A stretch of 32,000 nucleotides of DNA, taken from Candidatus Scalindua sp. Lineage in GTDB: Bacteria; Planctomycetota; Brocadiia; Brocadiales; Scalinduaceae. The notes below the pieces were generated by a model. That model was given only the letters and a program-made list of their open reading frames with translations, made no database searches and was not told the DNA's origin. The stretch spans positions 3,420,001-3,452,000 of the forward strand of contig JALDRA010000001.1 in assembly GCA_031316235.1 (NCBI GenBank). Reading direction: 5' to 3'. The translations under genes and the position numbers were made by a program. Within the stretch, counting starts at the first letter, position 1; every line of letters starts with the position of its first letter. Of the stretch, positions 1,305-32,000 are shown in pieces.

Positions 1305-1328
1305 ACCATTTATTTGGTGGGCGTTAAA

Positions 1329-1880: not shown

Positions 1881-2024
1881 TTGTAGAATGGTTGTTTTTT
1901 GTCTATATTGATGGTGCTTGACTGATTAAATCTTGTACGGGTGTGAACACCGCATACGTTGGAATGTGGATTTTGCCTGAAATGAAGCTCTGGTTGAAAG
2001 ATGTAAGTTATTGGGCTTCCTGGT

Positions 2025-2897: not shown

Positions 2898-2917
2898 GGT
2901 TTGAGGAGGGTTTGAGA

Positions 2918-3055
2918 GTGGAGAATATCTGGTTGATTATAAGCAAGCCTGATAATGTACCTATCGTGGGTTTGATTTTGCTTTTAGTTCTTTTTACGTG
3001 GATGTCTTTTAGCCAGGCGTCAAAAAACGATCGTCAGGCGAACGATGACAGTTAA
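2918..3055 (+). CDS. Candidate 45-aa single-TM micro-protein between the cyt b6 and flavoprotein genes
   Basis: Below the ORF-track size cutoff. GTG 2918 lies 8 nt after GAGGAGG (2903-2909). Translation is VENIWLIISKPDNVPIVGLILLLVLFTWMSFSQASKNDRQANDDS, with one hydrophobic helix and a polar tail. It fills an otherwise unexplained 204-nt gap. Confidence 0.4.
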   Translation: MENIWLIISKPDNVPIVGLILLLVLFTWMSFSQASKNDRQANDDS

Positions 3056-3101
3056 CTGTGAGTCTTTAATAAAGCATATGCTGTAAAATGGGGATTAATT
3101 C

Positions 3102-4796: not shown

Positions 4797-4856
4797 TTCA
4801 CAGGTGCACGCGTAGTTGGAAAATGAATAGAGCTGATTGTATGAAGGGGACAAGAA

Positions 4857-5684: not shown

Positions 5685-5714
5685 TAAAATGCGATTAAGG
5701 AAAGCTGGCATATA

Positions 5715-8561: not shown

Positions 8562-8645
8562 TTGTATCTGGAACATTGTTATCACCTGTTTTTTTTTGAA
8601 AATTGGTAGGCTGGTTGTTAATTATAATTATAAAGGAGTCATATT

Positions 8646-9416
8646 ATGAAAAAAATTATTGAAAGTTGTGTGAAAAGTGTCGTAATAGCCTTTATTATGG
8701 TTTCGTTTACGTTACTTGTCAGTAAGAGTAGTGTTAATGCTGAGTATGTGGGTGGGGATGTATCCAATGGCGGATCAATTTCTGGTACGATTAAGCTGAA
8801 GGGCGATACACCGGAGGTAAAGATGTTAAAGGTTGATAAGGATCAGGCAACCTGCGGTCACGATGATATAGAATCAGAAGCACTGATTTTATCAGCGGAC
8901 AATGGTATTAAGGATGCTGTTATTTCGATTACAGACATCACCAAGGGGAAAAAGTTTCCTGCTGATAAGCTAGAGATAGATCAGAAAGAATGTATATTCA
9001 TACCTCATGTGACATTAGCGCCAAAGGGGCAGACGGTTGAGCTGTTAAATAGTGACGATGTTATGCATAATCTGCATTCGTACTCGATGAAAAATACTGC
9101 TTTTAATGAAGGGGTTACAGGTGGTGGTAAACTTCCCAAAAATTTTGAATATGCTGAAACTATCAAAATTACCTGTGACGTGCATACCTGGATGACTTCA
9201 TGGCTGATTGTTCAGGATCACCCATATTATGTATTGAGTGACGAAAATGGTAAATATACGATTGACAATGTTCCTGCAGGTGACTACACTCTTCAGGTCT
9301 GGCAGGAATCTCTTGGAAAGACTACACAAAAGGTATCAGTAAAAGCAGGGGAAAACACCACAGTAGATTTTGAATTAGAGAAGAAATCTCAGAAAAAATC
9401 CAGAAAACGAAGGTAA
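8646..9416 (+). CDS. Secreted cupredoxin-like protein with C-terminal CarboxypepD_reg-like domain (paralog of 591..1304)
   Basis: AAAGGAG SD lies 7 nt upstream of the ATG and the N-terminus is signal-like. VMHNL plus CDVHTWM (C-x2-H-x2-M) give the ligand set. The C-terminus reads GKYTIDNVPAGDYTLQVWQESL...TTVDFEL. Confidence 0.75.
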   Translation: MKKIIESCVKSVVIAFIMVSFTLLVSKSSVNAEYVGGDVSNGGSISGTIKLKGDTPEVKMLKVDKDQATCGHDDIESEALILSADNGIKDAVISITDITKGKKFPADKLEIDQKECIFIPHVTLAPKGQTVELLNSDDVMHNLHSYSMKNTAFNEGVTGGGKLPKNFEYAETIKITCDVHTWMTSWLIVQDHPYYVLSDENGKYTIDNVPAGDYTLQVWQESLGKTTQKVSVKAGENTTVDFELEKKSQKKSRKRR

Positions 9417-9548
9417 TTGATACAGATGATTTGAAAATTTTTATTTATCTGTAATTTTTCTGTCTCAAAATCTTTAGACTCGATTAAAATAATTTTTTTT
9501 ACATATTTTGTAAAATTACTAATTAGGTAAAAACTAACATTGAATACC

Positions 9549-11492
9549 ATGAAACATTTTATCAAAGGGAAAAGCTGTAAGGTACTCTTTTCGTTCCTGT
9601 TTATTCTGATACTTCAGCTTGTTACGTCCCAGTATGTCGAGGCGCAGGAAAGTGGTGAGCTTGTACAATACCGGAATTTCTTCGGTATAGATGCACGTTT
9701 GATGGTGTGGATAGTTTCTGAATTGCATCTGATGTTTGCAGCGTTTGTACTTGGAGTTCCAATGTTTGCAGTAACGGTGGAGATTATCGGTGTAAAGTCC
9801 GGGGACATCAGATTTGACAACCTGGCACGAGAATTTACGAAACTTTTGTCAGCGGCCTTTGCTACAACTGCTGCATTGGGTGGCTTACTCGCATTTTGCC
9901 TGTATGGGATGTATCCCGGATTCATGCGCTATATGACCGATGTGTTCCATCCAATAATGTTCATATATGCTTTGCTTTTCTTTGCAGAGGCTTTCTGTTT
10001 GTACGGATATTATTATTCGTGGGACATACTCAAAGAGAAGGGTAAGTGGTTTCATATTTTTCTTGGTATCATGTTAAATGTCTTCGGTACGACATTGATG
10101 TTTCTCGCAAATTCCTGGGCAACGTTTATGATGTCGCCTGATGGCATAGATCTGGAAACCGGAGCTGTTACCAGTTTACATGCTGCCTTTGATAATTTTC
10201 TCTGGATGCCGGTTAATATACACCGACTGATTGCAAATGTTGCTTTTGGTGGTTTTGTTGTTGGTGCTTATGCGGCGGTGAAATTCATGGGATCTAAAAG
10301 TGATGAAGATAAAGCTCACTATGATTGGATGGGTTATATCGGTAATTTTATTGGTCTGGCAGCCTTGATACCTCTTCCTTTTGCCGGGTATTACCTTGGG
10401 CGTGAGATTTACAGTGCGAGCCCGGTTATGGGAAATATAATGATGGGTGGAGCATTTTCCTGGACCTTCATCATACAGGCTATTCTCATCGGTATGCTCT
10501 TCATCGGTGGAAACTATTATCTGTGGAATGGAATGGACAGAATTGAAGGTGCAGATCGTTATCGGAAATTTATAATATTTATTAATGTTATAATTTTCTT
10601 CTGCTTTGCGGTATGGTTAACTCCTCATAATCTTCCGCTGAGTGGTGAAGAGAGAGCCTTGATTGGAGAGCAGTATCACCCCTTCTCCAAATTCTTCGGT
10701 GTTATGGCTGCAAAGAATGCGGTAGTGAATCTTCTGATACTTTCAACATTTTTCAGCTTTCTTATCTATCGCAGGGCAAATAAAGGAGAGATTGTCACAT
10801 TTTCAAAGCATGGTAATTCCGCTCGCATAGCTCTGATTATTACCGCAGGGCTGACTATTCTATATCTGGCATGGTATGCAATGGGTTTACGTGCTGTAGA
10901 GTTGGATGCAAATATCAAACAGTACATTACACCTCTTCTTGCGTGTATAGCAATACAAATTACCGCTATAGTTATTGCGGTTCTCATGACTTTTGCTAAC
11001 AGAGGAAAATCTGCTCAAATTTTTCTTTTCATAGTGACTACTCTCATAGCGGTGGTTTATTTAGCCTATTATGGGTTTGTGGTCATGGAGAAGGCGAACA
11101 TGGTTTTACGGTTTTTGTCTGTGACCCAGGTGTCTGTTGTTATCAGTTGTTTAATTGTCAACGCAGTTTTAGATGTATTTATCTTCAAGAATGCTAAGGA
11201 AGTGGGAAAAATTCGCTGGGGTAAAATTCCGCTCCGATCACAATATGCATTACTTTTGCTCTGTGTGGCGATAGTAACGCTGATGGGTCTCATGGGATTC
11301 ATACGTTCTGGACTGCGGATGAACTGGCATATTTATGGCTATATGCAGGATACTTCGCCTGGAGCATTTACCCCCAGTATTTCATACATGGGTTTAACAA
11401 CTACTTTGATTGTAGTTCTTTTCCTGGCTCTTGTTTCCTTTGTATTCTGGTTAGCAGGTCTTGGAGATAAGAAGAAAGGGGGCCATGCTTAA
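9549..11492 (+). CDS. Orphan cytochrome bd subunit I (CydA)-like polytopic membrane protein, no adjacent CydB
   Basis: The ORF track gives 9540..11492 (TTG); the first ATG is at 9549. CydA-like landmarks are ELHLMFAAFVLGVPMF (N-terminal His), LANSWATFMMSPDG and NIHRLIANVAFGGFVVGAY (second His). About 14-15 hydrophobic helices are visible by eye. No long hydrophilic Q-loop is seen. Confidence 0.7.
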   Translation: MKHFIKGKSCKVLFSFLFILILQLVTSQYVEAQESGELVQYRNFFGIDARLMVWIVSELHLMFAAFVLGVPMFAVTVEIIGVKSGDIRFDNLAREFTKLLSAAFATTAALGGLLAFCLYGMYPGFMRYMTDVFHPIMFIYALLFFAEAFCLYGYYYSWDILKEKGKWFHIFLGIMLNVFGTTLMFLANSWATFMMSPDGIDLETGAVTSLHAAFDNFLWMPVNIHRLIANVAFGGFVVGAYAAVKFMGSKSDEDKAHYDWMGYIGNFIGLAALIPLPFAGYYLGREIYSASPVMGNIMMGGAFSWTFIIQAILIGMLFIGGNYYLWNGMDRIEGADRYRKFIIFINVIIFFCFAVWLTPHNLPLSGEERALIGEQYHPFSKFFGVMAAKNAVVNLLILSTFFSFLIYRRANKGEIVTFSKHGNSARIALIITAGLTILYLAWYAMGLRAVELDANIKQYITPLLACIAIQITAIVIAVLMTFANRGKSAQIFLFIVTTLIAVVYLAYYGFVVMEKANMVLRFLSVTQVSVVISCLIVNAVLDVFIFKNAKEVGKIRWGKIPLRSQYALLLLCVAIVTLMGLMGFIRSGLRMNWHIYGYMQDTSPGAFTPSISYMGLTTTLIVVLFLALVSFVFWLAGLGDKKKGGHA

Positions 11493-11625
11493 TCAAATTG
11501 AGAAATGATACAAAAATTAGGGAATATTCATGGCGTTTCTGTGGATTAGTTTGTTTTGTATGAATTCGTAAGGGAGCTTTCATAACATTTTAAATTGTGT
11601 TATTAGGAGTTAAAAAGCAAAGAAA

Positions 11626-12573
11626 ATGGCAAGTTTTGGTAAATCTATAATATTTACGTTACTGATTTTAGGGTTTTTTGTATATGTATGTTACTATGTA
11701 ACAGGATTATCAGGTGGCTCTGGCGGGGGAGAGGCAAAGGGCATCAATCCGGAGGCTGGCGAGCAGATCTACTGGGGTGACGGACAGTGCAGTACCTGCC
11801 ACAGCATCGGGTCCTCCGGAAGCGCTACGAGAGGACCAAATCAGGAAGGTCTTGCAGCAAGGGCTGAGGAGAGGGCTAAAGAGAGAGGTATGGCTACCGG
11901 ACTTGAGTATCTCATAGAATCTATCGTAGCACCTGGTGAATACGTTGTCGAGGGTTTTGATAATATCATGCCGAAGGTTTACGAAGCACCGATTCTCTTG
12001 GAGCGCGATCAGATAATGGCAGTACTTTCATACCTGCAAACGTTAGGTGGAGAGCCTGACATTGCCGCGATCAATAAACTCAAAGATAAAATTCCTCAGG
12101 CATCTAAGAGCAAGGTTATTCCATGGATTCCTCCTATAGAGGTGGAACCCAGCGTAGGAGAGCAAATTTTCTTCGATGGTACACGTGAAGTTACTTGTTC
12201 AAAATGTCATATGGTTAATGGTAAAGGAGCCAAGGTTGGTCCGGACTTGACCGGGATTGGTGCAGTGCAGACTCCTCAATATATTATTGAGTCTATCCTG
12301 AAACCCAGTCAGGTAATCGTCAATGGTTTTGAAACCATGTATCTTATTACAACTGATGGCATGGCTTATAACGGTATAGTGCAGAGTCAGTCTGAAGAAG
12401 AGACCGTGTTGTTGGTAGATGAAGAGGGTGAGATTGCCGAATATGTATTTTATCCAGATGAGATAGAGCAGATGCAGAAACAGGAAATTTCGATAATGCC
12501 TGGTAATTTTGGAGAGATGTTGACAACTTATGAATTTTATGGGATTGTTTCATATCTTTTGAGTTTAAAATAG
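11626..12573 (+). CDS. Membrane-anchored diheme c-type cytochrome
   Basis: CSTCH and CSKCH motifs, with an N-terminal TM helix (SIIFTLLILGFFVYVCYYVTGL). Confidence 0.8.
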   Translation: MASFGKSIIFTLLILGFFVYVCYYVTGLSGGSGGGEAKGINPEAGEQIYWGDGQCSTCHSIGSSGSATRGPNQEGLAARAEERAKERGMATGLEYLIESIVAPGEYVVEGFDNIMPKVYEAPILLERDQIMAVLSYLQTLGGEPDIAAINKLKDKIPQASKSKVIPWIPPIEVEPSVGEQIFFDGTREVTCSKCHMVNGKGAKVGPDLTGIGAVQTPQYIIESILKPSQVIVNGFETMYLITTDGMAYNGIVQSQSEEETVLLVDEEGEIAEYVFYPDEIEQMQKQEISIMPGNFGEMLTTYEFYGIVSYLLSLK

Positions 12574-12618
12574 TAACTGTTTTGAAATTAGTGCATTAAT
12601 ATAGAAGGAACTGAACGG

Positions 12619-13389
12619 ATGCAGAAAAAGAAACATTCATATTCGATGATATGGGCCATAATCTCGATACTTATTGTCTTTTGTATAATTAAATTTGTAT
12701 CACCATATGCGTTCATGATGCTGTTGGGTAAAGATCATACAATGCCAACTCCCAGTACCTTAATGTTATGGTACATGATTCTTGGTGTTCTGGGAGCGCT
12801 TGTCTATGTTTCTACCAGTGATTTAAAATGGGCAAACTTTTTAAGTTTCATGCTTCCGGGTGAGGATGACCGGACCAAGAAGATGCTCCAAAAGTTGATC
12901 GTGGTTGCATTTCCTTTGTTGCTGGGCTGGTTTGTCTATTCAGGAACTTCTCCTGGAACAGCATCTCCTGTTGAGCTGAGGATACAGCATCCTACTTTGC
13001 TGCAAAAGTATGAAAAAATGGAGAATCCATTCGCACACGTATCCGAAGAATTAAAAGAGCGCTATATTGAAGAAGGAAAGCACCTTTATCAACAGAACTG
13101 CCGGCCCTGCCATGGTTCAAAGGCCGATGGAAACGGTCCTTTCGCCAATTCGTTTCGATTGCGACCTATTAATTTTACTGATCCCGGTACAATAGCAACA
13201 GTTGTTGAGAGTTTCGCCTTCTGGCGTATTATGGAGGGTGGCCCCGGGTTGCCAGATGAGTCTACACCATGGGACTCTGCAATGCCTGCATGGGAAGGAA
13301 CACTGACAGATGATCAGGTTTGGAAGATTATTATGGGAGAATATGCAACTGCCGGGGTGAAACCAAGGCAGAGGGAGGAAATGGAATAG
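12619..13389 (+). CDS. Monoheme c-type cytochrome with three N-terminal TM helices
   Basis: A single CRPCH followed by GSKADGNG (class I / cbb3-type cytochrome c domain). Three hydrophobic segments precede it. GAAGGA SD lies upstream. Confidence 0.8.
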   Translation: MQKKKHSYSMIWAIISILIVFCIIKFVSPYAFMMLLGKDHTMPTPSTLMLWYMILGVLGALVYVSTSDLKWANFLSFMLPGEDDRTKKMLQKLIVVAFPLLLGWFVYSGTSPGTASPVELRIQHPTLLQKYEKMENPFAHVSEELKERYIEEGKHLYQQNCRPCHGSKADGNGPFANSFRLRPINFTDPGTIATVVESFAFWRIMEGGPGLPDESTPWDSAMPAWEGTLTDDQVWKIIMGEYATAGVKPRQREEME

Positions 13390-13470
13390 GGATCTTTGTT
13401 TTTTTTTAATGAAGAATTGTAATCACTTTTTATTGATGGCATATTAATACTTACTATTTAGAAAACTACG

Positions 13471-15219
13471 ATGAGCAAAAAAAAAGAGCAGTCAAATTAT
13501 TATTTTGAGTTTACGAGATATCTTTTTTTGATACTTGTTGCTTTCGTGCTTTTTTCACGATTTGGGTATACACAGACCTCTCAGCTCTTTAGGACGTATA
13601 AGAGTGAGATCACCGGTAAAGTACCTGAAACCCAGGATGCGGTTGCGGCAGGAAAGAAAATTTACGAAAAGAAGTGCTACTACTGCCATGGGATCAAGGG
13701 TGACGGGAAAGGTTCTGATGCCCTTAGGCTTAATCCAAGGCCGAGAAATTTCATCAGGAACGAGTATAAAATACGTTCAACACCTCTTCATGAACTTCCG
13801 ACTGATGAAGATCTTTTCAGGATTATAACAAGCGGAATTGAGGGAACAGATATGCCCTTTTGGAGTTCACTGTCCAGTGAAGAGAGGTGGCAGGTCGTTT
13901 ATTACATAAAAACTTTCAATACTGCTTTTGAAAAAAAATCTCAGAACGCATCAACTTCTGGTGGCAACGAGATTCCGGTGAGCCCGGAGTCAGTTAAAAT
14001 TGGTAGTGAGCTCTTTAAAGATGCAAAATGCGTAAACTGTCACGGTGAGGGTGGTAAGGCTGATGGTAAAATAACTACGACATTAGAGGGCATCTGGGAT
14101 CGTCCCTATCGTGCAAGGAATCTGACGAAAAGCTGGCTTTTTAAAGGTGGTAATGCTGCTTCAGATATTCATAGAACCCTGACGAATGGATTAAATGAAA
14201 CACCGATGGGTTCCTATGCAGAATATCTGTCAGATGAGGAGCGATGGCATCTGGCTCATTATGTCAAATCAATTTCTAAAACAATGGATACCGATGTGGT
14301 GCTTACCTCGAAAATAGTAGAAAGTTATCTTCCTGCTGGACCCGATGATCCGGTCTGGGATACAATCACCTCGGTTGAATTGCCATTGGCCGGGCAGATC
14401 ATCGCTAAACCGAGACAGTGGATGCCGTCCGTTGATTCAATCAAGGTCAAGTCTTTTTTTACTGATGAGTATATTGTCTTTCTGCTTGAGTGGGACGATA
14501 CGACAAACGAGCAGAATGAGACGTTTAGTGATTCGGTAGCCTTACAATTTCCCACATCAATCCCTGATGGATCTGAGAAACCCTATTTTGCGATGGGTAG
14601 TTCCGGGAAGGGTGTTACGATATGGCAATGGAGGGCGTATGATGAATCTCTTCAAATTGCCGAAAATGATTTAGAAGAAACGGATAAGGCGGACACAGCA
14701 ACCGATGGTGGCAGCAGCCTGGATGATAAAGAGGTTGAAGAAGATTCCGGTGATGTGGGTGTAAACACCCCTGAAAATGAGCAGGCAGAGATTGTTGAAG
14801 AAGAAGAGATGAAGCCTCTTTTTACCGAGTTTGCAACTTTAAGGGAAATGAATGCAAAGGGCTTTACGAATGTGAGCGTTCAGCCTTCCAGCAGCCAGCT
14901 TACCCGGGGACTTGGGGTATGGAGAAATGGTAAATGGAAGGTAATGGTAGCCAGTCCGATAGCCACAAATGACAAGAAGCTCGATATTCAATTTGAAGAG
15001 GGAAAGCTCATACCGTATGCCTTGGCGGTATGGGACGGATCTAAGCAGGAGGTTGGTGGGCTTAAATCTATTTCATCTTGGTATTATTTGAATTTGGAGA
15101 AAGTTACACCAAAAAGTGTCTATTTTTATGTTGTTATTGCAATAATAATTGGAACCAGTATTCAATTTTGGGTTATTGGAAGAGTAAGACGATTTCCCCC
15201 GAAGGTTAATGAAGAATAA
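13471..15219 (+). CDS. Diheme cytochrome c fused to an EB_dh (ethylbenzene dehydrogenase gamma / NxrC-NarC-like) heme b domain, C-terminal TM anchor
   Basis: CYYCHGIKGDGKG and CVNCHGEGGKADG form a CcoP-like diheme unit. The EB_dh-like strings are VALQFPTS..PYFAMGSSGKGVTIWQWRA and ALAVWDGSKQEVGGLKSISSWYYL. An acidic insert spans 14641-14817. The C-terminal TM is VYFYVVIAIIIGTSIQFWVIG. Confidence 0.7.
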   Translation: MSKKKEQSNYYFEFTRYLFLILVAFVLFSRFGYTQTSQLFRTYKSEITGKVPETQDAVAAGKKIYEKKCYYCHGIKGDGKGSDALRLNPRPRNFIRNEYKIRSTPLHELPTDEDLFRIITSGIEGTDMPFWSSLSSEERWQVVYYIKTFNTAFEKKSQNASTSGGNEIPVSPESVKIGSELFKDAKCVNCHGEGGKADGKITTTLEGIWDRPYRARNLTKSWLFKGGNAASDIHRTLTNGLNETPMGSYAEYLSDEERWHLAHYVKSISKTMDTDVVLTSKIVESYLPAGPDDPVWDTITSVELPLAGQIIAKPRQWMPSVDSIKVKSFFTDEYIVFLLEWDDTTNEQNETFSDSVALQFPTSIPDGSEKPYFAMGSSGKGVTIWQWRAYDESLQIAENDLEETDKADTATDGGSSLDDKEVEEDSGDVGVNTPENEQAEIVEEEEMKPLFTEFATLREMNAKGFTNVSVQPSSSQLTRGLGVWRNGKWKVMVASPIATNDKKLDIQFEEGKLIPYALAVWDGSKQEVGGLKSISSWYYLNLEKVTPKSVYFYVVIAIIIGTSIQFWVIGRVRRFPPKVNEE

Positions 15220-16729
15220 TACAATGAAAAAAAATAATTTGATAATCAGAAATCTTGAACTACTTGCTGCAACTGGGCTTTTTATTTTTTCAATTATTGT
15301 ATTGACCCCTTTGTCAATTCGTGCAGAAGCCAACAAGGATCAGAAGTTTTATCTAGAGATAGAGGAGTTATACAACGGTAAAAAAGAGTATAAGCAGCTG
15401 CCGATACAGCTGGAGGATCCATATGATCGCTCGAAAAATGGTCCTACGCTCAAGAATGTTATCCACAAGGCAAGCAAAGAGTGGTTGAAGAAGTGGATAG
15501 ATAATCCAACCTCCATGATTCCAAATGCTCGTATGCCGAGACTTATGTTAAGTGAAAGTGAGATTGAAGCAGTTCTGGCGTATTTAACAAGCATTGCCGA
15601 TAAGGATATTCCCCGACAGAAGTGGGATGAATACCTTATGAAAAGTGAAGATGATATGACCGACGATGAGTATGATGAAATGAATGATTTGAGCGATAAG
15701 GGTAAAGGTGTATGGGGAAGGGCACGTTGTAATATATGCCATCCAGTTAAAGGTAAAGGAGGTTCTGTTGATGTCGGGCCAGATCTCGGCAGGTTAGCGG
15801 AGAAATTGAACCGTGACTGGTTATATATGTGGATTAAAGAACCAAAAAGCCATTTCCGTGATACTCAAATGCCACGATATCGATTCAGTGATGATGAGAT
15901 ACGTCAATTGGTAGAATTTCTCATGCAGTCATATGATTTTAAACCTGAAGAGAGCGATGATGAGGAAAATGAATCAGATTCTCAGGAAAATGATTCTGGA
16001 TCAGGAGAACCTGAAGATGATACTGAAAAGGAAGGTTCAATAAGGGTCTCATCGCTTATCCCTGAAGGCTCTTTAATTGAAAAGGGTAAGAGGATTATTG
16101 AACTGAACAGATGCACTATCTGCCATGAAATTGAAGGGATAGCAGATCTTCTCCCTGTTAAAGAACCCAGTGTAGAACCTGAAAATACCTTTGCACATTT
16201 ATTGAATGATGTTCGTTGTATGACGTGTCATAAAATACAGGGTAATGGTGGTTCTTATGCTCCTGAACTGACACATGAAGGGAGCAAACTTAAACAGAAA
16301 TGGATTAAGGGTTTCTTACAGAAGCCTGATATTATCCGTCCTCTATTACAGCAGATGCCTAAATTTAACATTACTGAGGATGAGGCTGAGCTTGCAGTTG
16401 AGTTTATTGAGGAATACTTTGTAAACGACGATATTCCTGTTGCAAAGTTTGCCGACAGAGAGCCAACTGACGAGGAAATCAGTAAAGGTAAGGAGCTTTA
16501 TGATGTAAAGGGGTGTAGAAGTTGCCATGCGATACAAGAGGGAGGAATTGTTGGTCCAACATTAAAAAGAGTTGGTGACAGGTTAGAAAATGGTTTTATA
16601 TATCATCATCTGAAAAATCCTCACCTGGAAGTTCCTGATGGAGTTGAACCAAATTTTCAATTTTCGGATGAAGAGGCGGTTGCTATCACGAATTATCTGA
16701 TGTCATGTAAGGATAAGGAAAAAAATTAA
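15209..16729 (+). CDS. Membrane-anchored tetraheme c-type cytochrome with an N-terminal heme-less cytochrome-c-like domain
   Basis: Motifs CNICH, CTICH, CMTCH and CRSCH. It overlaps the previous stop by 11 nt; the alternative ATG is 15224. The N-terminal hydrophobic anchor is LELLAATGLFIFSIIVLTPL. An acidic linker reads DDEENESDSQENDSGSGEPEDD. Confidence 0.8.
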   Translation: MKNNTMKKNNLIIRNLELLAATGLFIFSIIVLTPLSIRAEANKDQKFYLEIEELYNGKKEYKQLPIQLEDPYDRSKNGPTLKNVIHKASKEWLKKWIDNPTSMIPNARMPRLMLSESEIEAVLAYLTSIADKDIPRQKWDEYLMKSEDDMTDDEYDEMNDLSDKGKGVWGRARCNICHPVKGKGGSVDVGPDLGRLAEKLNRDWLYMWIKEPKSHFRDTQMPRYRFSDDEIRQLVEFLMQSYDFKPEESDDEENESDSQENDSGSGEPEDDTEKEGSIRVSSLIPEGSLIEKGKRIIELNRCTICHEIEGIADLLPVKEPSVEPENTFAHLLNDVRCMTCHKIQGNGGSYAPELTHEGSKLKQKWIKGFLQKPDIIRPLLQQMPKFNITEDEAELAVEFIEEYFVNDDIPVAKFADREPTDEEISKGKELYDVKGCRSCHAIQEGGIVGPTLKRVGDRLENGFIYHHLKNPHLEVPDGVEPNFQFSDEEAVAITNYLMSCKDKEKN

Positions 16730-16750
16730 ATTTTTCGAAAAAAAATTATT

Positions 16751-17380
16751 ATGAGAAAATTAATTCAAACTACGGCTTTAAAATTTATTGTTGTTTTAAC
16801 AGCATCATTCTTAGTTTCAAATATTTTTCTTCGTGTAGTTATCAGTGAAGAAGCAGTTACAGAAGTGGCTGTAGAAATCAAGAAAATTATCTTGCTTGAA
16901 GAACAGAAACCTTATCTAACAACGCCGAAGAATACGTTTAATTATTACTGTGCACCTTGCCATGGAGACAAAGGGAATGGAAAGGGGATCTATTTTACTA
17001 TAGACCTTGAACCAAAACCAAGGGACCTTACAGATGTTGAATACATGGCAAAGCTGACCGATGATTACCTGCTCAATTACATCAAAACAGGCTCAGCAGC
17101 AATGGGAAAGTCAGATTTATGTCCACCATGGGGAGGGACCTTTGATGAGAAGAGAATAAAAGAAATAATCGGTCATATTCGATCACTGACAATTGCAAAA
17201 TCGGGTAGTGGTGAAAAAGCTGTCACCGGTACTGAAGATGTAGCCGCAGCCAAAGCGTCGGCTGCCGATGATACGCCTATGTTCATTAAATGGGGTGTGC
17301 TCATTTTCTTGTGTCTCGTATGTATGTTTGCTGCACGTAAAGAGTGGAAGAAACTGAAATCGGAAACTGAGTCTAAATAG
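16751..17380 (+). CDS. Monoheme c-type cytochrome with N-terminal signal/anchor and C-terminal TM helix
   Basis: CAPCHGDKGNGKG motif and a C-terminal helix WGVLIFLCLVCMFAA. Confidence 0.8.
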   Translation: MRKLIQTTALKFIVVLTASFLVSNIFLRVVISEEAVTEVAVEIKKIILLEEQKPYLTTPKNTFNYYCAPCHGDKGNGKGIYFTIDLEPKPRDLTDVEYMAKLTDDYLLNYIKTGSAAMGKSDLCPPWGGTFDEKRIKEIIGHIRSLTIAKSGSGEKAVTGTEDVAAAKASAADDTPMFIKWGVLIFLCLVCMFAARKEWKKLKSETESK

Positions 17381-17456
17381 GTGTTAATAGATTCATTGTT
17401 ACCGCTGCTATCGGTACTATACACAAATTTCAATATTTATTTGAGAACTTTATAAA

Positions 17457-18704
17457 TTGTTTAAAAAGATATTTATTCCGATCGATAATTCAAGATTTTC
17501 AGAATACTGTTCGGAAATAGGGATAACATTAGCAAGGAAATTTGACTCCGAGGTTATTGGTGGACACGTGTATGCCGCTAATTTACATCACCAGCGATTT
17601 AAGGAGATGGAAAGTGGTTTACCGGTACAGTACCGTAATGAGGAGGAGCTAAAAAAACAGAGAGAATTCCATAATTCCCTGATTGGTCGAGGTCTCAGAA
17701 TGATTTCTGACTCATATCTCGACAAACTCGAAAAGAGATGTAAGGATAATAGCCTACCATTCAAACGGAATTTACAGGAAGGAAAAAATTATATTGAGTT
17801 GGTAAATCAGATTATCGATAATCACTATGATTTAGCAATTATCGGTGTAAGAGGACTTGGGGAAGTGTCTGACAAGGTTATCGGCAGTGTCTGCGAGAGA
17901 GTTGTCAGGCGGATAAATGCTGATGTTCTAATCGTGAAGAACGATAGACCCATTGATGGCAGGGTACTTGTTGCCGTCGATGGAAGCGAACAGTCTTTCA
18001 GGTCGGTTGACATAGCATGTAAATTAGCACAGAATTTTGATATAGAGATCGATGCTCTGTCTGTTTATGATCCTCATTTTCACAGAGTTGCATTTGAAGG
18101 TATTGCAAAGGTGATTTCCGGCGAGATGGAAACTGTTTTTAAATCAGAGGAGCAGGAAGAGCTTCATGACAATGTGATCGATAAGGGGCTGGAGAAAATC
18201 TATCATGATCATCTGCAGGTTACTATTAAGAAAACAAAGGAGTACGGTATTGATATTAAGACAACACTACTTGAAGGAAAATCGTACGATCAGATTTTAA
18301 AGTATCAGGATAAGGTTAAACCTTCGCTTCTGGTGATCGGCCGTACCGGTATGCACACAAACAAGGGTTTGGATCTCGGTAGTGCGACCGAGAACATATT
18401 ACGCTTTGCAGATTGTAACGTTCTTATTACAAAAAATGTCATGGCTGATAACGTCAACCCTTTTTTTGAAAAGATGAAAGAGGATCAGGGAATTGAAAGA
18501 GATGTAACTGTCGCCTCTGAAGTTCGGGAAATTGCATGGAATGAAGATGCAAGATTGTTGATGTCTAAAGTGCCTGCATTTGTAAGAGAAATGGTAAAAA
18601 AAGAAGTTGAAAGTTATGCTTCTAAAAATGCGAAGAGCATTATTACCGGGGAAGTTGTCGAGGAAGCTAAAGCAAAATGGGCAAATGTAATGAACATTTC
18701 CTGA
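17457..18704 (+). CDS. Tandem universal stress protein (USP-USP) fused to a C-terminal PCP_red-like domain
   Basis: TTG start giving MFKKIFIPIDNS. There are two USP-like units (IFIPIDNS...VLIVKN and VLVAVDGSEQS...VIGRTGMH...NVLITKN). The C-terminal EIAWNEDARLLMSKVPAFVREMVKKEVESYA resembles the PCP_red domain. Confidence 0.7.
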   Translation: MFKKIFIPIDNSRFSEYCSEIGITLARKFDSEVIGGHVYAANLHHQRFKEMESGLPVQYRNEEELKKQREFHNSLIGRGLRMISDSYLDKLEKRCKDNSLPFKRNLQEGKNYIELVNQIIDNHYDLAIIGVRGLGEVSDKVIGSVCERVVRRINADVLIVKNDRPIDGRVLVAVDGSEQSFRSVDIACKLAQNFDIEIDALSVYDPHFHRVAFEGIAKVISGEMETVFKSEEQEELHDNVIDKGLEKIYHDHLQVTIKKTKEYGIDIKTTLLEGKSYDQILKYQDKVKPSLLVIGRTGMHTNKGLDLGSATENILRFADCNVLITKNVMADNVNPFFEKMKEDQGIERDVTVASEVREIAWNEDARLLMSKVPAFVREMVKKEVESYASKNAKSIITGEVVEEAKAKWANVMNIS

Positions 18705-18997: not shown

Positions 18998-19161
18998 AAA
19001 TGATCTCCCTGATAGCATTTGTTACCTGAAATCTATCGGGATAAATTTGTAAGCCATTGGCGATAACCCCCCGGATTTACCATACCTTCACAATATCCCT
19101 CCATAATAGGGATAGGCCCTGTTTTGTTCATGTGTTGAAAACAGTGGTAATTTTATTTGAC

Positions 19162-19190
19162 TTGAAAGCATATGATCTATATGGTATATA
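19162..19190 (+). promoter_or_regulatory. Candidate promoter for 19315 ORF (TTGAAA - 17 nt - TGgTATATA extended -10)
   Basis: TTGAAA at 19162-19167, TG at 19182-19183 and TATATA at 19185-19190. AT-rich context, so this is only suggestive. Confidence 0.25.
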
Positions 19191-21709: not shown

Positions 21710-21849
21710 TATACTAAAACCGATTTGGTTTTAGATTTTTCTAAAAACCAGAGCCTGGTTGCTGATATCCACGGACAAAAAACACCGAGGACTTTACTCG
21801 CTCCGCTTTATCCCGGATTTTATCCGAAAACCATTATACGATGAGTATA
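21710..21849 (+). repeat. Interspersed structured intergenic repeat, copy B (full length, one hairpin module)
   Basis: TATACTAAAACCGATTTGGTTTTAG...CCACGGACAAAAAACACCGAGGA...CCCGGATTTTATCCGAAAACCATTATACGATGAGTATA. It lies between two minus-strand genes. Confidence 0.85.
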
Positions 21850-27545: not shown

Positions 27546-28511
27546 TTATCTGATGCGAATTAAGATATCATCAGTGATATCTAATCTGTGCCTGGTATGA
27601 TAAATCTGAGATAAAAACCTTTCAGCATCTTCAGGATATCCGGCTGTTGGTTTCAACTCTTTTACCTGTTCCTGCCAATAGATATTGAATAATCTGATAA
27701 ACAATTCACGAATGTATTTACTGAACATTGATGCCAGTGCTGTTGGAAAATGTTTTGAGTCCGCACCTTTGATAAACGATACATTCATACTTTTTGTTTC
27801 ATTGAGGATTCTATATGCTGATATCGAATTCCCCTCTGATATCACATTTACTGTGTGTCCCTGGAAACCCGTTGTTAGTAATTGGTGGTAGTAATTTCTT
27901 CCACCATGTTTATCTATTAAGACCCTGGGATCCTTTTCGCCGAAACAGTGAAAAATCTCCTTCATGTGTTGCAGGCTGTTATTGAAGAGGAGGATCGCCT
28001 TATTACGGGTACATTCAATCTGCCGGTTGATTTCGTGAACACACAGAAAAATGGTCTTAACTTCACGTAAAAGTATATTTTGTAGACTTGCCGAGCTATT
28101 AATCATCTCTGCACATTGCACTATTTTAGAAACACTTGAAGCAACAGGCAGATTGATATCTTTTCCCTTATACCACGGGTATTTATCCAGCACGCTGCTA
28201 TCAAGATTTGACAACAATTTCAGTAAATCAGAAAATCGTGTTACTTTCCAGTTTTTACTCCAGATAAAGGATAATACTGTCTCCTCAAGGATCCTCAATC
28301 CGCTTCTTTGTGAATACGTTTTCTTGCTATCATTCACAACGATACGATTGCCCCGGTTTTGAACCTTATCTGAAATTGCTCCTCCCAGCAGCTGCCAGAT
28401 ATTGGTATCATGATCACACCAGTGGGGCAACTCCATTACAACTGATGTTAAAACAAGTGGTCCGATTCTTGGGCCGTATCCGGCTTCATCAATACCAGCG
28501 ATTATGGCCAT
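27546..28511 (-). CDS. RNase HII-like protein with a large internal insertion
   Basis: IAGIDEAGYGPRIGPLV, NDSKK, VLIDKHGG, KGADSKHFPTALASMFSKYIRE and AGYPED line up with the RnhB motifs GVDEVGRGP, NDSKKL, VLIDG, KGDS..AASILAK..RD and GYP. About 85-100 extra residues sit between the DSKK and HEIN regions. Confidence 0.6.
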   Translation of the reverse strand: MAIIAGIDEAGYGPRIGPLVLTSVVMELPHWCDHDTNIWQLLGGAISDKVQNRGNRIVVNDSKKTYSQRSGLRILEETVLSFIWSKNWKVTRFSDLLKLLSNLDSSVLDKYPWYKGKDINLPVASSVSKIVQCAEMINSSASLQNILLREVKTIFLCVHEINRQIECTRNKAILLFNNSLQHMKEIFHCFGEKDPRVLIDKHGGRNYYHQLLTTGFQGHTVNVISEGNSISAYRILNETKSMNVSFIKGADSKHFPTALASMFSKYIRELFIRLFNIYWQEQVKELKPTAGYPEDAERFLSQIYHTRHRLDITDDILIRIR

Positions 28512-28534
28512 TTTTTCTCAGGGGATTTCTTATG

Positions 28535-28674
28535 TATACTAAAACCTGTATGGTGTCAGATTTTTCTAAGAACCAAAGGCTGAATAATGGTATCCCCGGA
28601 CAAAAAACGCCGGTGACTTTACTCGCTCGGTTATTTCCCGGATTTTATCCGAAAACCATTATAAGATGAGTATA
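28535..28674 (+). repeat. Interspersed structured intergenic repeat, copy C (full length, one hairpin module)
   Basis: TATACTAAAACCTGTATGGTGTCAG...CCCCGGACAAAAAACGCCGGTGA...CCCGGATTTTATCCGAAAACCATTATAAGATGAGTATA. Confidence 0.85.
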
Positions 28675-28845
28675 TCTCACGAACTGATAACAAAGAGATA
28701 AATAATACCGGGAGATTATAGCATGCTCATTATCGCTGTCAAGAAGCCATTTGACAGGTGTCGTTGATTGGGGATTTTGTTTTGATCAGTGGAAAACAGC
28801 TTAAAAGATTGTCGGTATATGATTGCTGTCCTGTTCCAATTCTCC

Positions 28846-28873
28846 TTGACAAAGATGTTGACTCAAATATAAT
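28846..28873 (+). promoter_or_regulatory. Near-consensus sigma70 promoter (TTGACA - 16 nt - TATAAT) ending 9 nt before ATG 28883
   Basis: TTGACA at 28846-28851 and TATAAT at 28868-28873 are both perfect hexamers. No SD lies between the -10 and the ATG, which implies a leaderless or near-leaderless mRNA. Confidence 0.45.
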
Positions 28874-28882
28874 GAACCAGCT

Positions 28883-29326
28883 ATGAAAAAAGTAATAGAA
28901 GGTTGCGTTGCAAGGATACTTGACGAATATAGAATAGTGATTACTGTCGGGTGCAGAGATGAAGTGAAAATTGGCATGGTTTTCGTTATTATTGCGCTGA
29001 GTGAAGACGAGATAAGAGATCCTGTGAGCAATGAAGTGCTTGGAAAGCTGGAAAATATCAAAGACTATGTTTCCGTAGTACATGTGCAGGACAAATTTTC
29101 TACCTGTGTTGCAAGAGAGAATACGAGAGTATTCCGGGATGGTGAGGATAGGGTTATGCAAACGCTCAGTGGTGCAATGATGGCTGAATCTATGACCGCC
29201 AGACGTGAAAAAGAGCGAAAAGATACGCGGAAATTGTATGTTAATACCTCTCAGATTACCGGTACACCTCAATTAAGACCTATTTCGGTAGGAGACACGG
29301 TACGTTCTGTCTGTTTGGCGGGTTAA
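28883..29326 (+). CDS. Hypothetical 147-aa protein (no family recognised)
   Basis: The + strand ORF has protein-like composition and a consensus promoter directly upstream. The competing minus-strand ORFs (28739..29272, 28801..29061) are rich in H/F/S/C/N, as antisense frames usually are. Confidence 0.5.
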   Translation: MKKVIEGCVARILDEYRIVITVGCRDEVKIGMVFVIIALSEDEIRDPVSNEVLGKLENIKDYVSVVHVQDKFSTCVARENTRVFRDGEDRVMQTLSGAMMAESMTARREKERKDTRKLYVNTSQITGTPQLRPISVGDTVRSVCLAG

Positions 29327-29363
29327 GTAGTTTTCGTACAGCCGCTCAGTGCATACGTCCAGA

Positions 29364-29502
29364 TATACTGAAACAGATTTTGTTTTAGTATTTTCTAAAA
29401 ACCAAGTCTGGTTAATGGTATCCCCGGACAAAAAACGCCGAGGACCTTACCCGCTCCGTTTTTTTCCGGATTGTATCCGAAAACCATTGTAAGTTGAGTA
29501 TA
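29364..29502 (+). repeat. Interspersed structured intergenic repeat, copy D (full length, one hairpin module)
   Basis: TATACTGAAACAGATTTTGTTTTAG...CCCCGGACAAAAAACGCCGAGGA...TCCGGATTGTATCCGAAAACCATTGTAAGTTGAGTATA. Confidence 0.85.
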
Positions 29503-29609
29503 CTTGAAAGCAGATCCAGTTCGGTTTAAATCTGTCTTTACGCCAAAGCGTGGCTCGTTGCTAAACAGGATTAAAATGATTTTTGTAAAACTGATACCAT
29601 AAGGGATAG

Positions 29610-30953
29610 ATGAAAGTAATAAAACTACAAGAGAGCGGTAATGAATTTGAGGTAGAAAAGATCAAACAGGGAATGAGTCTGTTTGCTGATATAATTTCGG
29701 TAAAGATGGCGGACAAGACGAGAGAGGTATTTGATGAACCTCTCTCACCAATAGAAAGTGTAAAGCGTATTATTTCTGATGTCAGGGAAAAAGGTGATAA
29801 TGCCTTATCGTATTATTCAGAAAAATTTGAGGGTGTTGCCTTATCTGCGAATGATTTTCGAGTCAAAGAGGAAGAGATTGAAGATGCCTACAGGAAGGTG
29901 TCCGCCGGCTTTTTACGAGCTATAAGAACTGCACGGGATAACATCAAGGTCTTCCAGGAACACATCCGTATGCATGAACCTGAACCATTTTATTCGAAGG
30001 GTACAAGAATAACCGTTACCTATGATCCAATTGAAAATGTTGGTCTTTATATCCCGGGAGGTTCTGCATCGTATCCTTCAACAGTACTCATGAATGCGAT
30101 GCCTGCTAAAGTTGCAGGGGTGAAAAATATCGCTGTCGTCTCACCGCCTGGGAAAGACGGGAGTTTATCACCTGAAAGGCTGGTTGCCTGCAAGGAATCT
30201 GAGGTAGATGAGATCTATAAGATTGGAGGCGTACATGCAGTTGCGGCGCTTGCATTCGGTACGAAGACAGTACGGAAGGTTGACATGATAGTTGGTCCGG
30301 GTAATATCTATGTTACCCTTGCCAAAAAAGAGGTATTTGGACATGTCGGAATCGATATATTAGCGGGTCCGAGCGAAGTCCTGATCATTGCGGATCATTC
30401 TGCAAATGCTGTTTTTATTGCTGCCGATCTGCTTTCTCAGGCGGAACATGCCCCTGGCATATCAATATTAGTTACCGACTCTGAGAAATTTGCAAATGAC
30501 GTCTTACATGAGACAGATCGGCAGTTGTTAAGTGTACCCCGGAGCGACTGCGTCAGAGAATCACTTGCGAAGTTTGGTTTCATTCTCATCACAAAAGATC
30601 TTGACGAGGCAATTGCTGTAACAAATACTCTTGCTCCAGAGCATCTCCAGATAGTTACAAGAAATGATGAAAGTGTTCTGTCGGGGATAAAGCATGCAGG
30701 GGCAATATTTCTGGGTCCCTATTCACCCGTTGCGGTAGGGGATTATATTGCCGGACCGTCCCATGTCTTACCAACGGGAAGCACCGCTCGATTTTTTTCC
30801 GGTTTGTCTGTGAACGACTTTCTGAAAAGGAAGAGTATTATGACAAATTCAAAACATGATCTGGCTTCACTGGCAGATGATATTATCACCATTTCAGAAG
30901 CTGAAGGTCTTTGGGCACATGCTCAATCGGTGCGCGTGAGAATGGAAAAATGA
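29610..30953 (+). CDS. hisD: Histidinol dehydrogenase
   Basis: 447 aa. Motifs LLSQAEHAPG, GDYIAGPSHVLPTGSTARF and GPSEVLIIAD are characteristic of HisD. Confidence 0.95.
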   Translation: MKVIKLQESGNEFEVEKIKQGMSLFADIISVKMADKTREVFDEPLSPIESVKRIISDVREKGDNALSYYSEKFEGVALSANDFRVKEEEIEDAYRKVSAGFLRAIRTARDNIKVFQEHIRMHEPEPFYSKGTRITVTYDPIENVGLYIPGGSASYPSTVLMNAMPAKVAGVKNIAVVSPPGKDGSLSPERLVACKESEVDEIYKIGGVHAVAALAFGTKTVRKVDMIVGPGNIYVTLAKKEVFGHVGIDILAGPSEVLIIADHSANAVFIAADLLSQAEHAPGISILVTDSEKFANDVLHETDRQLLSVPRSDCVRESLAKFGFILITKDLDEAIAVTNTLAPEHLQIVTRNDESVLSGIKHAGAIFLGPYSPVAVGDYIAGPSHVLPTGSTARFFSGLSVNDFLKRKSIMTNSKHDLASLADDIITISEAEGLWAHAQSVRVRMEK

Positions 30954-30986
30954 GTCTCGGATCTGGCTTTTATCTTGAACCTGTGA

Positions 30987-31098
30987 TATACTGAAACCGA
31001 TTTGGTTTTCGGTTTTTCTGGAAACCAAATCTTGGTGAAGGCATACTCGCTCCATTTTATCTCAGATTTTATCCGAAAACCATTATGAGATGAGTATA
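30987..31098 (+). repeat. Interspersed structured intergenic repeat, copy E (short form lacking the CCCCGGACAAAA..GAGGA module)
   Basis: TATACTGAAACCGATTTGGTTTTCGG...ACCAAATCTTGGT...TACTCGCTCCATTTTATCTCAGATTTTATCCGAAAACCATTATGAGATGAGTATA. It sits between hisD and hisC. Confidence 0.8.
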
Positions 31099-31176
31099 AT
31101 TCTGATCAGAAACCAGGTTTTCTCACATTCATTTTGACTCTTTAATTCTGGAGTGTCCAGACTGGATTTTATTACC

Positions 31177-32000
31177 ATGACAACACGATCAAGTTACTTT
31201 AGAAAGAACATTGATAGAATGGCCGGATACGTTCCTGGAGAACAACCCCGGGATGGCGCGTATATCAAGCTCAATACTAATGAGAATCCGTATCCACCAT
31301 CACCAAAAGTACTGGCGGCATTGAAGGAGGCTGTGGATGAAAAATTGCGGCTCTATCCCGATCCGAATGCAACGGCTGTGAAGGAAAAGGCGGCCGAGAT
31401 TTTTAGCACACGTCCTGAACGTGTCATGGTGGGGAATGGTTCAGATGAACTATTAACCATAATAATTCGCTGCTTTGTAGGGGAGGGAGATAAAGTTGTT
31501 TATCCCTATCCAACGTATCTGCTTTATAAGATCCTCTCTGATATTCAAGATGGTACGGTGTGCACTGTGAACTTTCCTGAAGACTATTCCCTACCGGAAG
31601 AGATTATAAGCAAGGGGGCATCAATTATTTTTATCTGTAATCCGAATTCTCCTTCCGGAACGATGGTATCTGTCGATGAGGTATCAAACATTGCAGGTAA
31701 GACAAACAGTGTAATTGTAGTTGATGAGGCATATGTTGATTTTGCTGATGATAACTGCTTGAGACTGGTAGACGAACATCCAAACCTGATTATCCTGCGT
31801 ACTTTGTCAAAGTCATATTCTTTAGCGGGAATGCGTCTGGGGTTTGCTGTTGCCCAGGAAGGCTTGATAGGCGGGATGATGAAGGTCAAGGATTCGTATA
31901 ATGTAAACAGGCTGGGTATGGCAGCTGCAATTGCAGCATTAGGTGATCAGGAAACATTCCGGGAAAACGTTGCCAGAATAAAACGGACGAGAGGACACCT
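31177..32000 (+). CDS. hisC: Histidinol-phosphate aminotransferase (3' end beyond window)
   Basis: Absent from the ORF track because there is no stop inside the window. My translation from ATG 31177 reads MTTRSSYFRKNIDRMAGYVPGEQP...IKLNTNENPYPPSP...VGNGSDELL...NPNSPSG...VVDEAYVDF...LRTLSKSYSLAGMRLGF. The frame is open to position 32000 and contains the PLP-Lys motif SKSYSLAG. Confidence 0.9.
   Translation, partial: MTTRSSYFRKNIDRMAGYVPGEQPRDGAYIKLNTNENPYPPSPKVLAALKEAVDEKLRLYPDPNATAVKEKAAEIFSTRPERVMVGNGSDELLTIIIRCFVGEGDKVVYPYPTYLLYKILSDIQDGTVCTVNFPEDYSLPEEIISKGASIIFICNPNSPSGTMVSVDEVSNIAGKTNSVIVVDEAYVDFADDNCLRLVDEHPNLIILRTLSKSYSLAGMRLGFAVAQEGLIGGMMKVKDSYNVNRLGMAAAIAALGDQETFRENVARIKRTRGH

Follow-up and report, generated by a model that had tools for sequence, protein, structure and literature searches.

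An interspersed repeat occurs five times in the stretch of DNA analyzed here (the window), which comprises 32,000 nucleotides (nt) of Candidatus Scalindua sp. (assembly GCA_031316235.1, contig JALDRA010000001.1, positions 3,420,001-3,452,000). We conclude, with a probability of roughly 0.87, that this repeat is a MITE (miniature inverted-repeat transposable element), namely, a non-autonomous DNA transposon that derives from an IS630-family (Tc1/mariner-type DDE) insertion sequence (IS) of anammox Planctomycetes and has most likely been moved in trans. The repeat is 113 to 196 nt long, non-coding, and present in many copies; it possesses inverted ends and a TA duplication; its ends are homologous to those of an IS630 element in one of the genomes that carry the repeat, and the partner has a helix-turn-helix (HTH) and a DDE_3 domain. 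These are the characters of a MITE. The family is new in a clade for which no MITE seems to have been described; its kind and its mechanism are well known. The initial annotation of the window had regarded the repeat as apparently undescribed, which agrees with the absence of a paper on this family, or on any Scalindua MITE, from the literature searched and of a match from Rfam. The same annotation left a choice between a REP/ERIC/MITE-like element and an RNA element family, of which the MITE-like part was retained and the RNA part was not. Its more exotic reading is refuted because a MITE with a cognate IS, the outcome it had itself named as refuting, is what was found.

All five copies lie on the plus strand, at positions 1-116 (A), 21710-21849 (B), 28535-28674 (C), 29364-29502 (D), and 30987-31098 (E). 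These coordinates, already proposed in the initial annotation, were returned both by a repeat finder and by an nhmmer search with a profile built from 33 copies, all from other genomes (E values of 4e-41 for B, 9e-38 for C, 3e-38 for D, and 3e-28 for E; copy A was detected in two pieces, with 3e-17 and 6.5e-07). With this profile no sixth copy emerged above noise in the window, the next-best match having an E value of 0.39. A weak match within hisD (30784-30825) and a pair reported by the repeat finder (19137-19173 and 29479-29515) were dismissed as chance similarities. The five-way alignment had a mean column identity of 77% and sharp ends (TATACT...GAGTATA). Among the three copies of the 140-nt class, pairwise identity was 80 to 84%, as was their identity to the family consensus, in line with the 80 to 85% previously estimated by eye for B and D. 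Every complete copy starts with TATACT and ends with GAGTATA, which bears out the termini initially described (TATACT and AGTATA). According to the open reading frame (ORF) calls, all five are intergenic, as had been stated, and they are non-coding, with indels breaking every reading frame.

To follow the family beyond the window, one pattern of the 3' end was scanned over bacteria and archaea, with one genome per species. It matched at least 120 stretches, each of which was retrieved as an 8-kb block (about 1 Mb sampled; L labels such as L057 denote these and other retrieved loci). All of the at least 120 listed matches were located in four metagenome-assembled genomes (MAGs) assigned to Scalindua, Scalinduaceae, or Planctomycetota, so that at least four genomes carry the family. 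Among the matches listed, 60 loci belonged to Candidatus Scalindua sp. SCAELEC01, 41 to Scalindua sp. RBC_AMX3, 18 to a Scalinduaceae bacterium (contigs of 2.3 and 2.9 Mb), and 1 to a Planctomycetota MAG. There was no high-identity overlap between the window and the 120 listed loci, the single match being 72% over 566 nt; the window would thus belong either to a fifth genome or to portions of these four outside the retrieved blocks. An nhmmer search of the listed loci and the window resulted in 179 matches, including 118 different copies of full length, whose ends are sharp and whose flanks are unrelated, in accordance with the high genomic copy number that had been suspected. The 120 sampled blocks contained 53 copies in addition to the one by which each block had been selected, which corresponds to about 1 per 18 kb and a few hundred per genome, a rough figure from a biased sample. 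Three length clusters (111-113, 136-143, and 161-172 nt) and individual copies of 177 and 196 nt give size classes of ~113, ~140, ~166, and ~196 nt. The common orientation of the five window copies did not extend to the family, for which 173 copies elsewhere showed mixed orientation.

The copies differ in apparent age. The 140-nt copies of RBC_AMX3 had a mean identity of 95% to the consensus and of up to 99.3% pairwise, and therefore indicate recent spread. The window copies, at 80 to 84% to the consensus, look old, and the 5' hairpin of copy C has decayed. As far as sequence divergence can tell, the family thus gives the impression of recent activity in some species and of old age in the genome of the window. 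Species differ in the presence or absence of copies at given sites. One orthologous intergenic site retains a copy in two Scalindua species (L018:4498-4609 and L115:6827-6939); the block is 89.6% identical and the neighbouring genes are 81 to 84% identical, so that the shared copy could be an old common insertion or could be under constraint.

The flanks outside TATAC...GTATA are unrelated between copies, and inspection of the flanking dinucleotides, as proposed at the outset, revealed a TA target duplication in three site reconstructions. At L057, a related 182-nt MITE interrupts a copy of the repeat: the genome's own consensus at this place is CAATTT-TA-TACCGG, and the filled site reads CAATTT-TA-[TACCCATT...GATGGGTA]-TA-TACCGG, with GGGTA-TA-TACCGG at the right junction. 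At L055, a copy (515-656) is inserted into one member of another repeat, the third and a very abundant one, for which the consensus of seven intact members is GCGCCTTG-TA-TCTGGGCAG (the TCTGGGCAG side starts with TCTGGG); the filled site is GCGCCTTA-TA-[TACT...GAGTA]-TA-TCTGGGCAG. The third case compares the filled site L093:2162-2301 with the orthologous empty site in L014 (SCAELEC01), which has a single TA, in an inexact alignment with flanks only ~80% identical. These reconstructions indicate that the target-site duplication is made up of the outer TA at either side. The target preference, determined over 103 copies, is palindromic around this TA: A is found at -3 in 50% and at -1 in 59% of the cases, and position +1 is T (47%) or A (34%; together 81%). 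Nearly excluded are C at -3 and -2 (2-3%) and G from +1 to +3 (6-8%). A TA duplication combined with a symmetric, AT-rich preference is a hallmark of IS630/Tc1-mariner transposases. The 6- to 7-nt terminal inverted repeat that, according to the initial annotation, could close a stem is rather a TA duplication together with a bipartite inverted end of ~26 nt of the transposase type.

The element proper would accordingly extend from TACT to GAGTA, with the TA duplicated on each side. The outer TA|TAC(T/C) is the presumed cleavage point, and positions 17-26 form an inner box, TGGTTTT(C/A)GG, predicted to be the likely transposase binding site. An IS630 transposase supplied in trans would process the MITE ends by cut-and-paste. 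We infer from the sequences that such a transposase binds these ends, that transposition in trans takes this form, and that copies may be mobile at present.

A candidate for the parent element was found in SCAELEC01. Three contigs of this MAG start with one common stretch of 125 nt that ends in ...CCTAAAACCATTTCGTAATGAGTATA (L038:1-125, L082:1-126, and L087:1-123). Within it, one frame is open to a stop inside the end sequence, FKKACKSFFRRSKKYKEEISSLLTENFQIIGTNT (FKKACKSFF...SLLTENFQIIGTNT), and aligns, in a tblastn search against plasmids, with the very C-terminal end of a transposase annotated as belonging to the IS630 family (52% identity, E value of 1e-3). When the tandem-duplicated peptide was used as query for a protein collection, the frame matched fragments annotated as "IS630 family transposase" from Planctomycetes and Brocadiaceae, with the Pfam domain DDE_3 and the motif LPPYSPNLNLIERLWKY. 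The left end of the SCAELEC01 IS is located at the end of contig SHMT01000071 (L036:4970-5096), where TATACTAATCGCGAAATAAAATTCGAG... is followed by the start of orfA, MTPFTLSQEEISSLKAAHK; L126 has MTPFTLSEDEISILKTAHRG at the same place. Locus L126 (1475-2597) is a complete relative of 1123 bp from a Brocadiaceae MAG, TA|TACCAGTCACG...GAAATGGGTA|TA, in which Pfam identifies HTH_33/HTH_29 in orfA and DDE_3 in orfB, and L127 is an internally deleted IS630 copy that keeps both ends. The genomic occurrences of the IS630 frame are mostly 5'-truncated remnants or lie at contig edges; the further IS630 loci (L123, L124, L125, L128, and L129) were all 5'-truncated remnants. Unpaired end-like matches in the 120 listed loci were also considered as transposase candidates and proved to be decayed remnants, a group II intron (L057), an IS110 element (L061/L106), or gene duplications. 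A search of metagenome contigs with a degenerate DNA pattern for the IS gave no match.

The ends of the SCAELEC01 IS share 16 to 22 of 26 to 30 nt with those of the repeat, and the terminal 8 to 9 nt are identical. Over the first 30 nt of the IS right end, 22 positions agree with the 5' end and 21 with the 3' end of the repeat, and the two ends of the 182-nt family agree at 24 and 26. At its outermost positions the repeat has TATACTAA and ATGAGTATA, which coincide exactly with the left and right termini of the IS, respectively, and the repeat and the IS therefore have the same polarity. IS630-family elements have already been reported in other anammox genomes (PMC7814187).

Several observations weigh against an IS630-derived MITE. 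The window contains no IS630 gene. The initial statement that no transposase is nearby thus holds for the window, but a cognate-type IS630 with matching ends exists in a repeat-carrying genome and a full-length relative was recovered. The SCAELEC01 IS was seen only as two ends at contig breaks, with its interior unassembled. No contiguous full-length IS with near-identical ends was recovered, the complete element of L126 being from another MAG and having more diverged ends. The agreement of the repeat's own two ends, at 16 of 26 positions, is weak for a classical MITE. Finally, an asymmetric element carrying a TA of its own would formally look the same as a TA duplication, and the alignment of the third reconstruction is inexact.

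The anatomy of the element bears on the divergence of its ends. The 5' half consists of TATACT-AAAACCGATT-TGGTTTTCGG, a 5-nt loop, and then CTGGAAACCA-AATCTTGGTTGCAGT-TATA, and is best read as a variant left end duplicated in inverted orientation; the 3' half, with TATACTCGCTCAATTTTATCTCGGAT, TTT, and then ATCCGAAAACCATTATGAGATGAGTATA, is read as the right end duplicated likewise. On this reading the element is composed of two end-loop-end mini-elements that meet at a TA, the left-end-variant unit measuring ~55 nt and the right-end unit ~57 nt. Its appearance as a string of hairpins arises because two palindromic end-loop-end units make up the body. A 27-nt module (TCCCCGGACAAAAGGCGCCGAGGACTT) lies between two TAs at the unit junction and is present 0, 1, or 2 times per element, so that the hairpins are inverted end copies plus this variable module. 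The number of modules together with nested GC-rich hairpins produces the 113-, 140-, 166-, and 196-nt size classes, GC-rich palindromes of ~30 nt at three positions accounting for the longer ones. In the inverted ends, the outer 6 nt are perfect and the inner 10-nt box is equidistant from each end; the overall self-match of 16/26, versus ~23/26 in the sister 182-nt family, is due to a variant middle segment carried by the 5' end. There are two subfamilies, TTTTAGA...TCTAAAA and TTTTCGG...CTGGAAA, with a coordinated change on both arms of the 5' hairpin. The same A/C difference exists between the two ends of the IS, and likewise between those of the 182-nt family, and therefore points to two copies of a putative protein-binding site that co-vary, not to RNA covariation. 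Miniature derivatives were also found, namely, a 30-nt TATACT-hairpin-AGTATA remnant (L031:7020-7049), the 57-nt 3' unit alone (L073:6331-6385), and a copy deleted between two AAACC repeats (L004:5699-5755).

Copy B, which is located between two minus-strand genes, illustrates this organization. The TA at 21710-21711 and that at 21848-21849 (no strand assigned) are read as the target-site duplication on the basis of the TA duplication of the family. All further features are on the plus strand. The left terminal inverted repeat including the TA (21710-21735; TATACT-AAAACCGATT-TGGTTTTAGA) resembles the IS left end (IRL), and an internal inverted copy of this end (21740-21767; TCTAAAAACCAGAGCCTGGTTGCTGATA) forms a long 5' hairpin with 21716-21735. 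The 27-nt module (21768-21794; TCCACGGACAAAAAACACCGAGGACTT) is followed by the left arm of the 3' unit (21795-21818; TACTCGCTCCGCTTTATCCCGGAT), which repeats the right end in inverted, degenerate form, and by the right terminal inverted repeat with its TA (21822-21849; ATCCGAAAACCATTATACGATGAGTATA), which resembles the IS right end (IRR). Copy A, cut at its 5' side by the window edge, ends in ...AAGATGAGTATA, where the right end lacks one C (GAAAAC-ATTA); the repeat finder located two tandem modules in it, at 9-35 (TCCCCGGACAAAAAATGCCGAGGACTT) and 36-62 (TCCCCGGACAAAAGGTGTCGAGGATTT), both on the plus strand. The modules of copy C (140 nt) and copy D (139 nt) are at 28593-28619 and 29421-29447, respectively. 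Copy E, with 112 nt, belongs to the size class without module.

Considering the hairpins, we assessed whether the repeat could be a structured RNA family (a small RNA, a cis-regulatory leader, or a terminator or processing signal) kept for the hairpins of its transcripts, which we judge to be very improbable. Single copies fold better than shuffled sequences (z about -3), copy E is situated in an operon-like spacer between hisD and a hisC-like ORF and is probably transcribed, and one copy is retained at the orthologous site in two species with 89.6% identity. However, both strands fold equally, as any palindromic DNA would. In 43 aligned 140-nt copies, the RNAalifold covariation term was -0.01 kcal/mol, and 9 pairs were changed on both sides, versus 8 to 12 when the partners were slid by 1 to 3 columns. 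In the best single-sequence fold 89.8% of the cells pair, versus 88.5% after shuffling, and the majority of departures from the consensus break pairs. The Rfam check proposed initially gave 0 matches for the whole window at gathering thresholds and also 0 matches at E<=1 over 28400-31300, a region with three copies. No promoter- or terminator-like consensus site was found inside the three copies of the region scanned. The proposed comparison of orientation with flanking genes revealed no bias: within tandem gene contexts, 40 copies were co-directional with the genes and 47 were opposite to them (p 0.52); the other contexts were divergent (33) or convergent (17). Only 13 of the 179 matches overlapped an ORF of >=100 amino acids (aa) by more than 30 nt, and such ORFs occupy 73% of the sampled DNA (p about 4e-78). 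Taken together, these data point to a DNA-level mobile element purged from genes, not to a strand-specific RNA, and an RNA family would leave the TA duplication and the IS-type ends unexplained.

A repetitive extragenic palindromic (REP) sequence or bacterial interspersed mosaic element (BIME), moved through single-stranded hairpins by a REP-associated tyrosine transposase (RAYT) or an IS200/IS605-type tyrosine (Y1) transposase, would also be rich in hairpins. Some copies contain nested GC-rich REP-like palindromes, one Scalinduaceae genome harbors a RAYT-like Y1 gene (L107:2721-3281), and all five window copies are on the strand of positive GC skew. The latter distribution had prompted us to consider single-strand transposition, which was ruled out because 173 copies showed no significant bias with respect to local GC skew (75 versus 98, p 0.09); there was also no positional pattern on two Mb-scale contigs. 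Moreover, inverted ends and a TA duplication are not what Y1 transposition generates, the ends of the repeat match the IS630 element and not the flanks of the RAYT-like gene, and an AT-rich element of 113 to 140 nt contrasts with a GC-rich palindrome of 20 to 40 nt, which renders this explanation hardly credible. A modular repeat of the BOX/ERIC type without a transposase partner, spread by recombination or by a mechanism of another kind and similar to IS630 ends through ancient descent, is improbable too. Its modular architecture with an internal unit of variable number, as in pneumococcal BOX, the age of the window copies, and the lack of an intact IS for the genome of the window (within the 32 kb covered) would fit such an origin. 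The recent spread in RBC_AMX3, the precise boundaries with TA duplication and symmetric target preference, and the IS630 ends with the same terminal 8 to 9 nt in the same genome argue against it.

An IS630-derived MITE is also the closest counterpart among known systems. Like other IS630/Tc1-mariner-type MITEs, the Scalindua repeat is small, non-coding, multi-copy, and almost exclusively intergenic, has inverted ends homologous to an IS630-family element (HTH and DDE_3), a TA duplication, and a symmetric AT-rich target, and forms internal deletion and size variants. It differs in its new sequence family, no MITE having been reported for marine anammox Scalindua in the literature searched, in the divergence between its ends, and in a body composed of two fused end-loop-end units with a variable 27-nt hairpin instead of a simple IS with an internal deletion. 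The Correia elements of Neisseria (CREE/NEMIS) start with TATA and duplicate a TA. They measure about 100 to 155 nt, with inverted ends of ~26 nt and size classes defined by an internal segment, all as in the Scalindua repeat, but they share no sequence similarity with it. We know of no parent IS for the Correia elements, whereas an IS630 partner has been identified for the Scalindua repeat. A further similarity is that Correia elements exceed 120 copies per genome and are often located beside or between genes and co-transcribed; they also carry promoters, integration host factor (IHF) sites, and sites of RNase III processing (PMC10969869); as to promoters, no such site was found inside the Scalindua copies scanned. 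The BOX elements of Streptococcus pneumoniae are likewise modular, with a hairpin unit of variable number (boxB, comparable to the 27-nt module), and they cluster and nest with other small repeats (PMC10969869), as does the Scalindua repeat. However, BOX lacks clear inverted ends, a target duplication, and an identified transposase, all three of which are present here. The repeat also differs from REP/RAYT systems in being AT-rich, 113 to 140 nt long, and equipped with inverted ends and a TA duplication, and the RAYT-like gene at L107 is flanked by different sequences.

The 27-nt module was found to be interrupted by another mobile element. REP/BIME elements serve as landing sites for IS110-family elements (IS621, ISPpu9/10). 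Similarly, an IS110-family element of ~1.7 kb in RBC_AMX3 (L061:4511-6209 and L106:3246-4941; Pfam DEDD_Tnp_IS110 and Transposase_20, with the frame split in L061) occupies the same nucleotide of the module loop in two separate copies, the landing site being here a module of an IS630-type MITE and not a RAYT-type REP. Its junctions read ..CCGGACAAAAG|CTTGCTAT...AAACCAG|GCGCCGAGG..., with AG at both. The two IS110 copies are 99.5% identical and reside in MITE copies with different flanks; no further copy was present in the sampled loci. The pattern suggests that a bridge-RNA-type recombinase homes site-specifically into the MITE hairpin. It is possible, though rather unlikely, that the module is a dedicated homing site for such an IS110-family recombinase, that co-transcribed copies have been co-opted as RNA-level signals for processing or stability, or both. 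Homing would mean that the MITE provides IS110 with many neutral landing pads. Candidates for an RNA-level take-over, as known from Correia elements, would be copy E and the copy at the orthologous site of the two species.

The repeat is embedded in a variety of other repeats and mobile elements. The sister MITE family of 181 to 182 nt has inverted ends of ~25 nt, TATACCCATTGCAAAATGGTTTTAGG and TATACCCATCACAAATTGGTTTTCGG (TATACCCAT..TGGTTTT(A/C)GG), and TA-flanked boundaries as in the 140-nt family, and on its left side the resemblance to the IS630 left end continues past the inverted repeat, over ~55 nt. Its 35 blastn matches come from SCAELEC01 and the CBDCUS genome, and the window gave none; copies include L009:4156-4337, L030:1247-1427 and 2295-2476, L036:830-1011, L043:6545-6726, L065:3077-3258, L077:5204-5384, L099:6093-6274, and L117:7107-7288. 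A three-level nesting was observed at L057:390-2605 (CBDCUS contig_14, about 792-795 kb), where a 140-nt copy contains a 182-nt copy that in turn contains a group II intron. This intron has a minus-strand ORF of 415 aa (580-1827; Pfam RVT_1 and GIIM) with a domain V-like hairpin downstream, and further reverse transcriptase genes of group II introns are at L115:456-1523 and L018:7367-7918. The third repeat, ~120 nt long and strongly palindromic (GTTGAACGAAAACTGCCCA...TGGGCAGTTTTCGTTCAAC; L014:6674-6799, L093:7418-7543, L063:5767-5907, and L074:5450-5575), often adjoins or nests with the MITE; of its 81 blastn matches in the sampled loci, 70 are in SCAELEC01, and none was found in the window. 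Yet another repeat family forms the flanks of L045:5565-5704 and L009:5995-6125. The GC-rich REP-like palindromes of ~30 nt, such as CCTGCCCGACATGTCGTTCAGGCGGGCAG, CCCGTCCGAACGGTTGACAGGCCGGGCGGG, and CCTGTCTGCGTGCATCGCACAGGCAGG, occur in either orientation at three fixed positions of the MITE (inside copies of L087, L071, L011:4190-4330, and L101:2678-2835) and also outside it (free-standing at L020:~2250-2295, L018:~4800-4840, and L108:~5660-5710). The RAYT-like gene mentioned above is a minus-strand ORF of 186 aa on CBDCUS contig_14 that resembles REP-associated tyrosine transposases (tblastn with E. coli RayT, E value of 1e-3; Pfam Y1_Tnp at 22 bits, just below the 23-bit cut-off). Palindromes of the GGGCAGGTTTGTAACCTGCCC type flank this ORF, which may be the partner of the GC-rich hairpins and is unrelated to the MITE ends. 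RBC_AMX3 additionally harbors a segmental duplication of 1.18 kb with 99% identity (L045:4666-5838 and L101:2678-3855) that comprises a MITE copy with a nested GC hairpin and a shikimate-kinase-like ORF.

The window has a G+C content of 41%, and the genes next to its copies encode tetratricopeptide repeat (TPR) proteins, a semialdehyde dehydrogenase, a SLAC1-type channel, HisD, and a class I/II aminotransferase. Copy D is located in the divergent region upstream of hisD. Copy E lies in the spacer between the hisD stop at 30953 (Pfam Histidinol_dh) and the aminotransferase ORF that starts at 31177, a hisC-like gene that is consistent with hisC, as the initial annotation had placed one copy in a hisD-hisC spacer. 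In public assemblies, the exact HisD of the window was found solely on contig L121 (Logan), which measures 1.6 kb and is bounded by the two flanking MITE copies; no empty allele for these copies was found in public assemblies, this contig alone carrying hisD. Copy A ends ~450 nt upstream of the first ORF of a long same-strand cluster (1314-18704) that encodes a Rieske protein, cytochrome b, an FAD/NAD oxidoreductase with 4Fe-4S domains, several multihaem c-type cytochromes, an ORF with a cytochrome bd subunit I-like domain, an ethylbenzene-dehydrogenase-like haem protein, and a tandem universal stress protein. This cluster would fit an anammox-type Rieske/cytochrome b complex.

The finding leaves the known workings of such elements unchanged. 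The MITE, at least two sister families, and the IS630 parent are sequences in which Scalindua assemblies break; four SCAELEC01 contigs, for instance, start or end inside the IS630 element (L038, L082, L087, and L036). Annotation of these repeats would help the assembly of MAGs, the calling of genes in intergenic regions, and the strain typing of marine anammox bacteria. They also represent a record of repeated IS630-driven amplification bursts in a lineage without a genetic system, and reveal a layered ecology of mobile DNA in which a MITE is inserted into a MITE, a group II intron into a MITE, and an IS110 element homes into a MITE hairpin.

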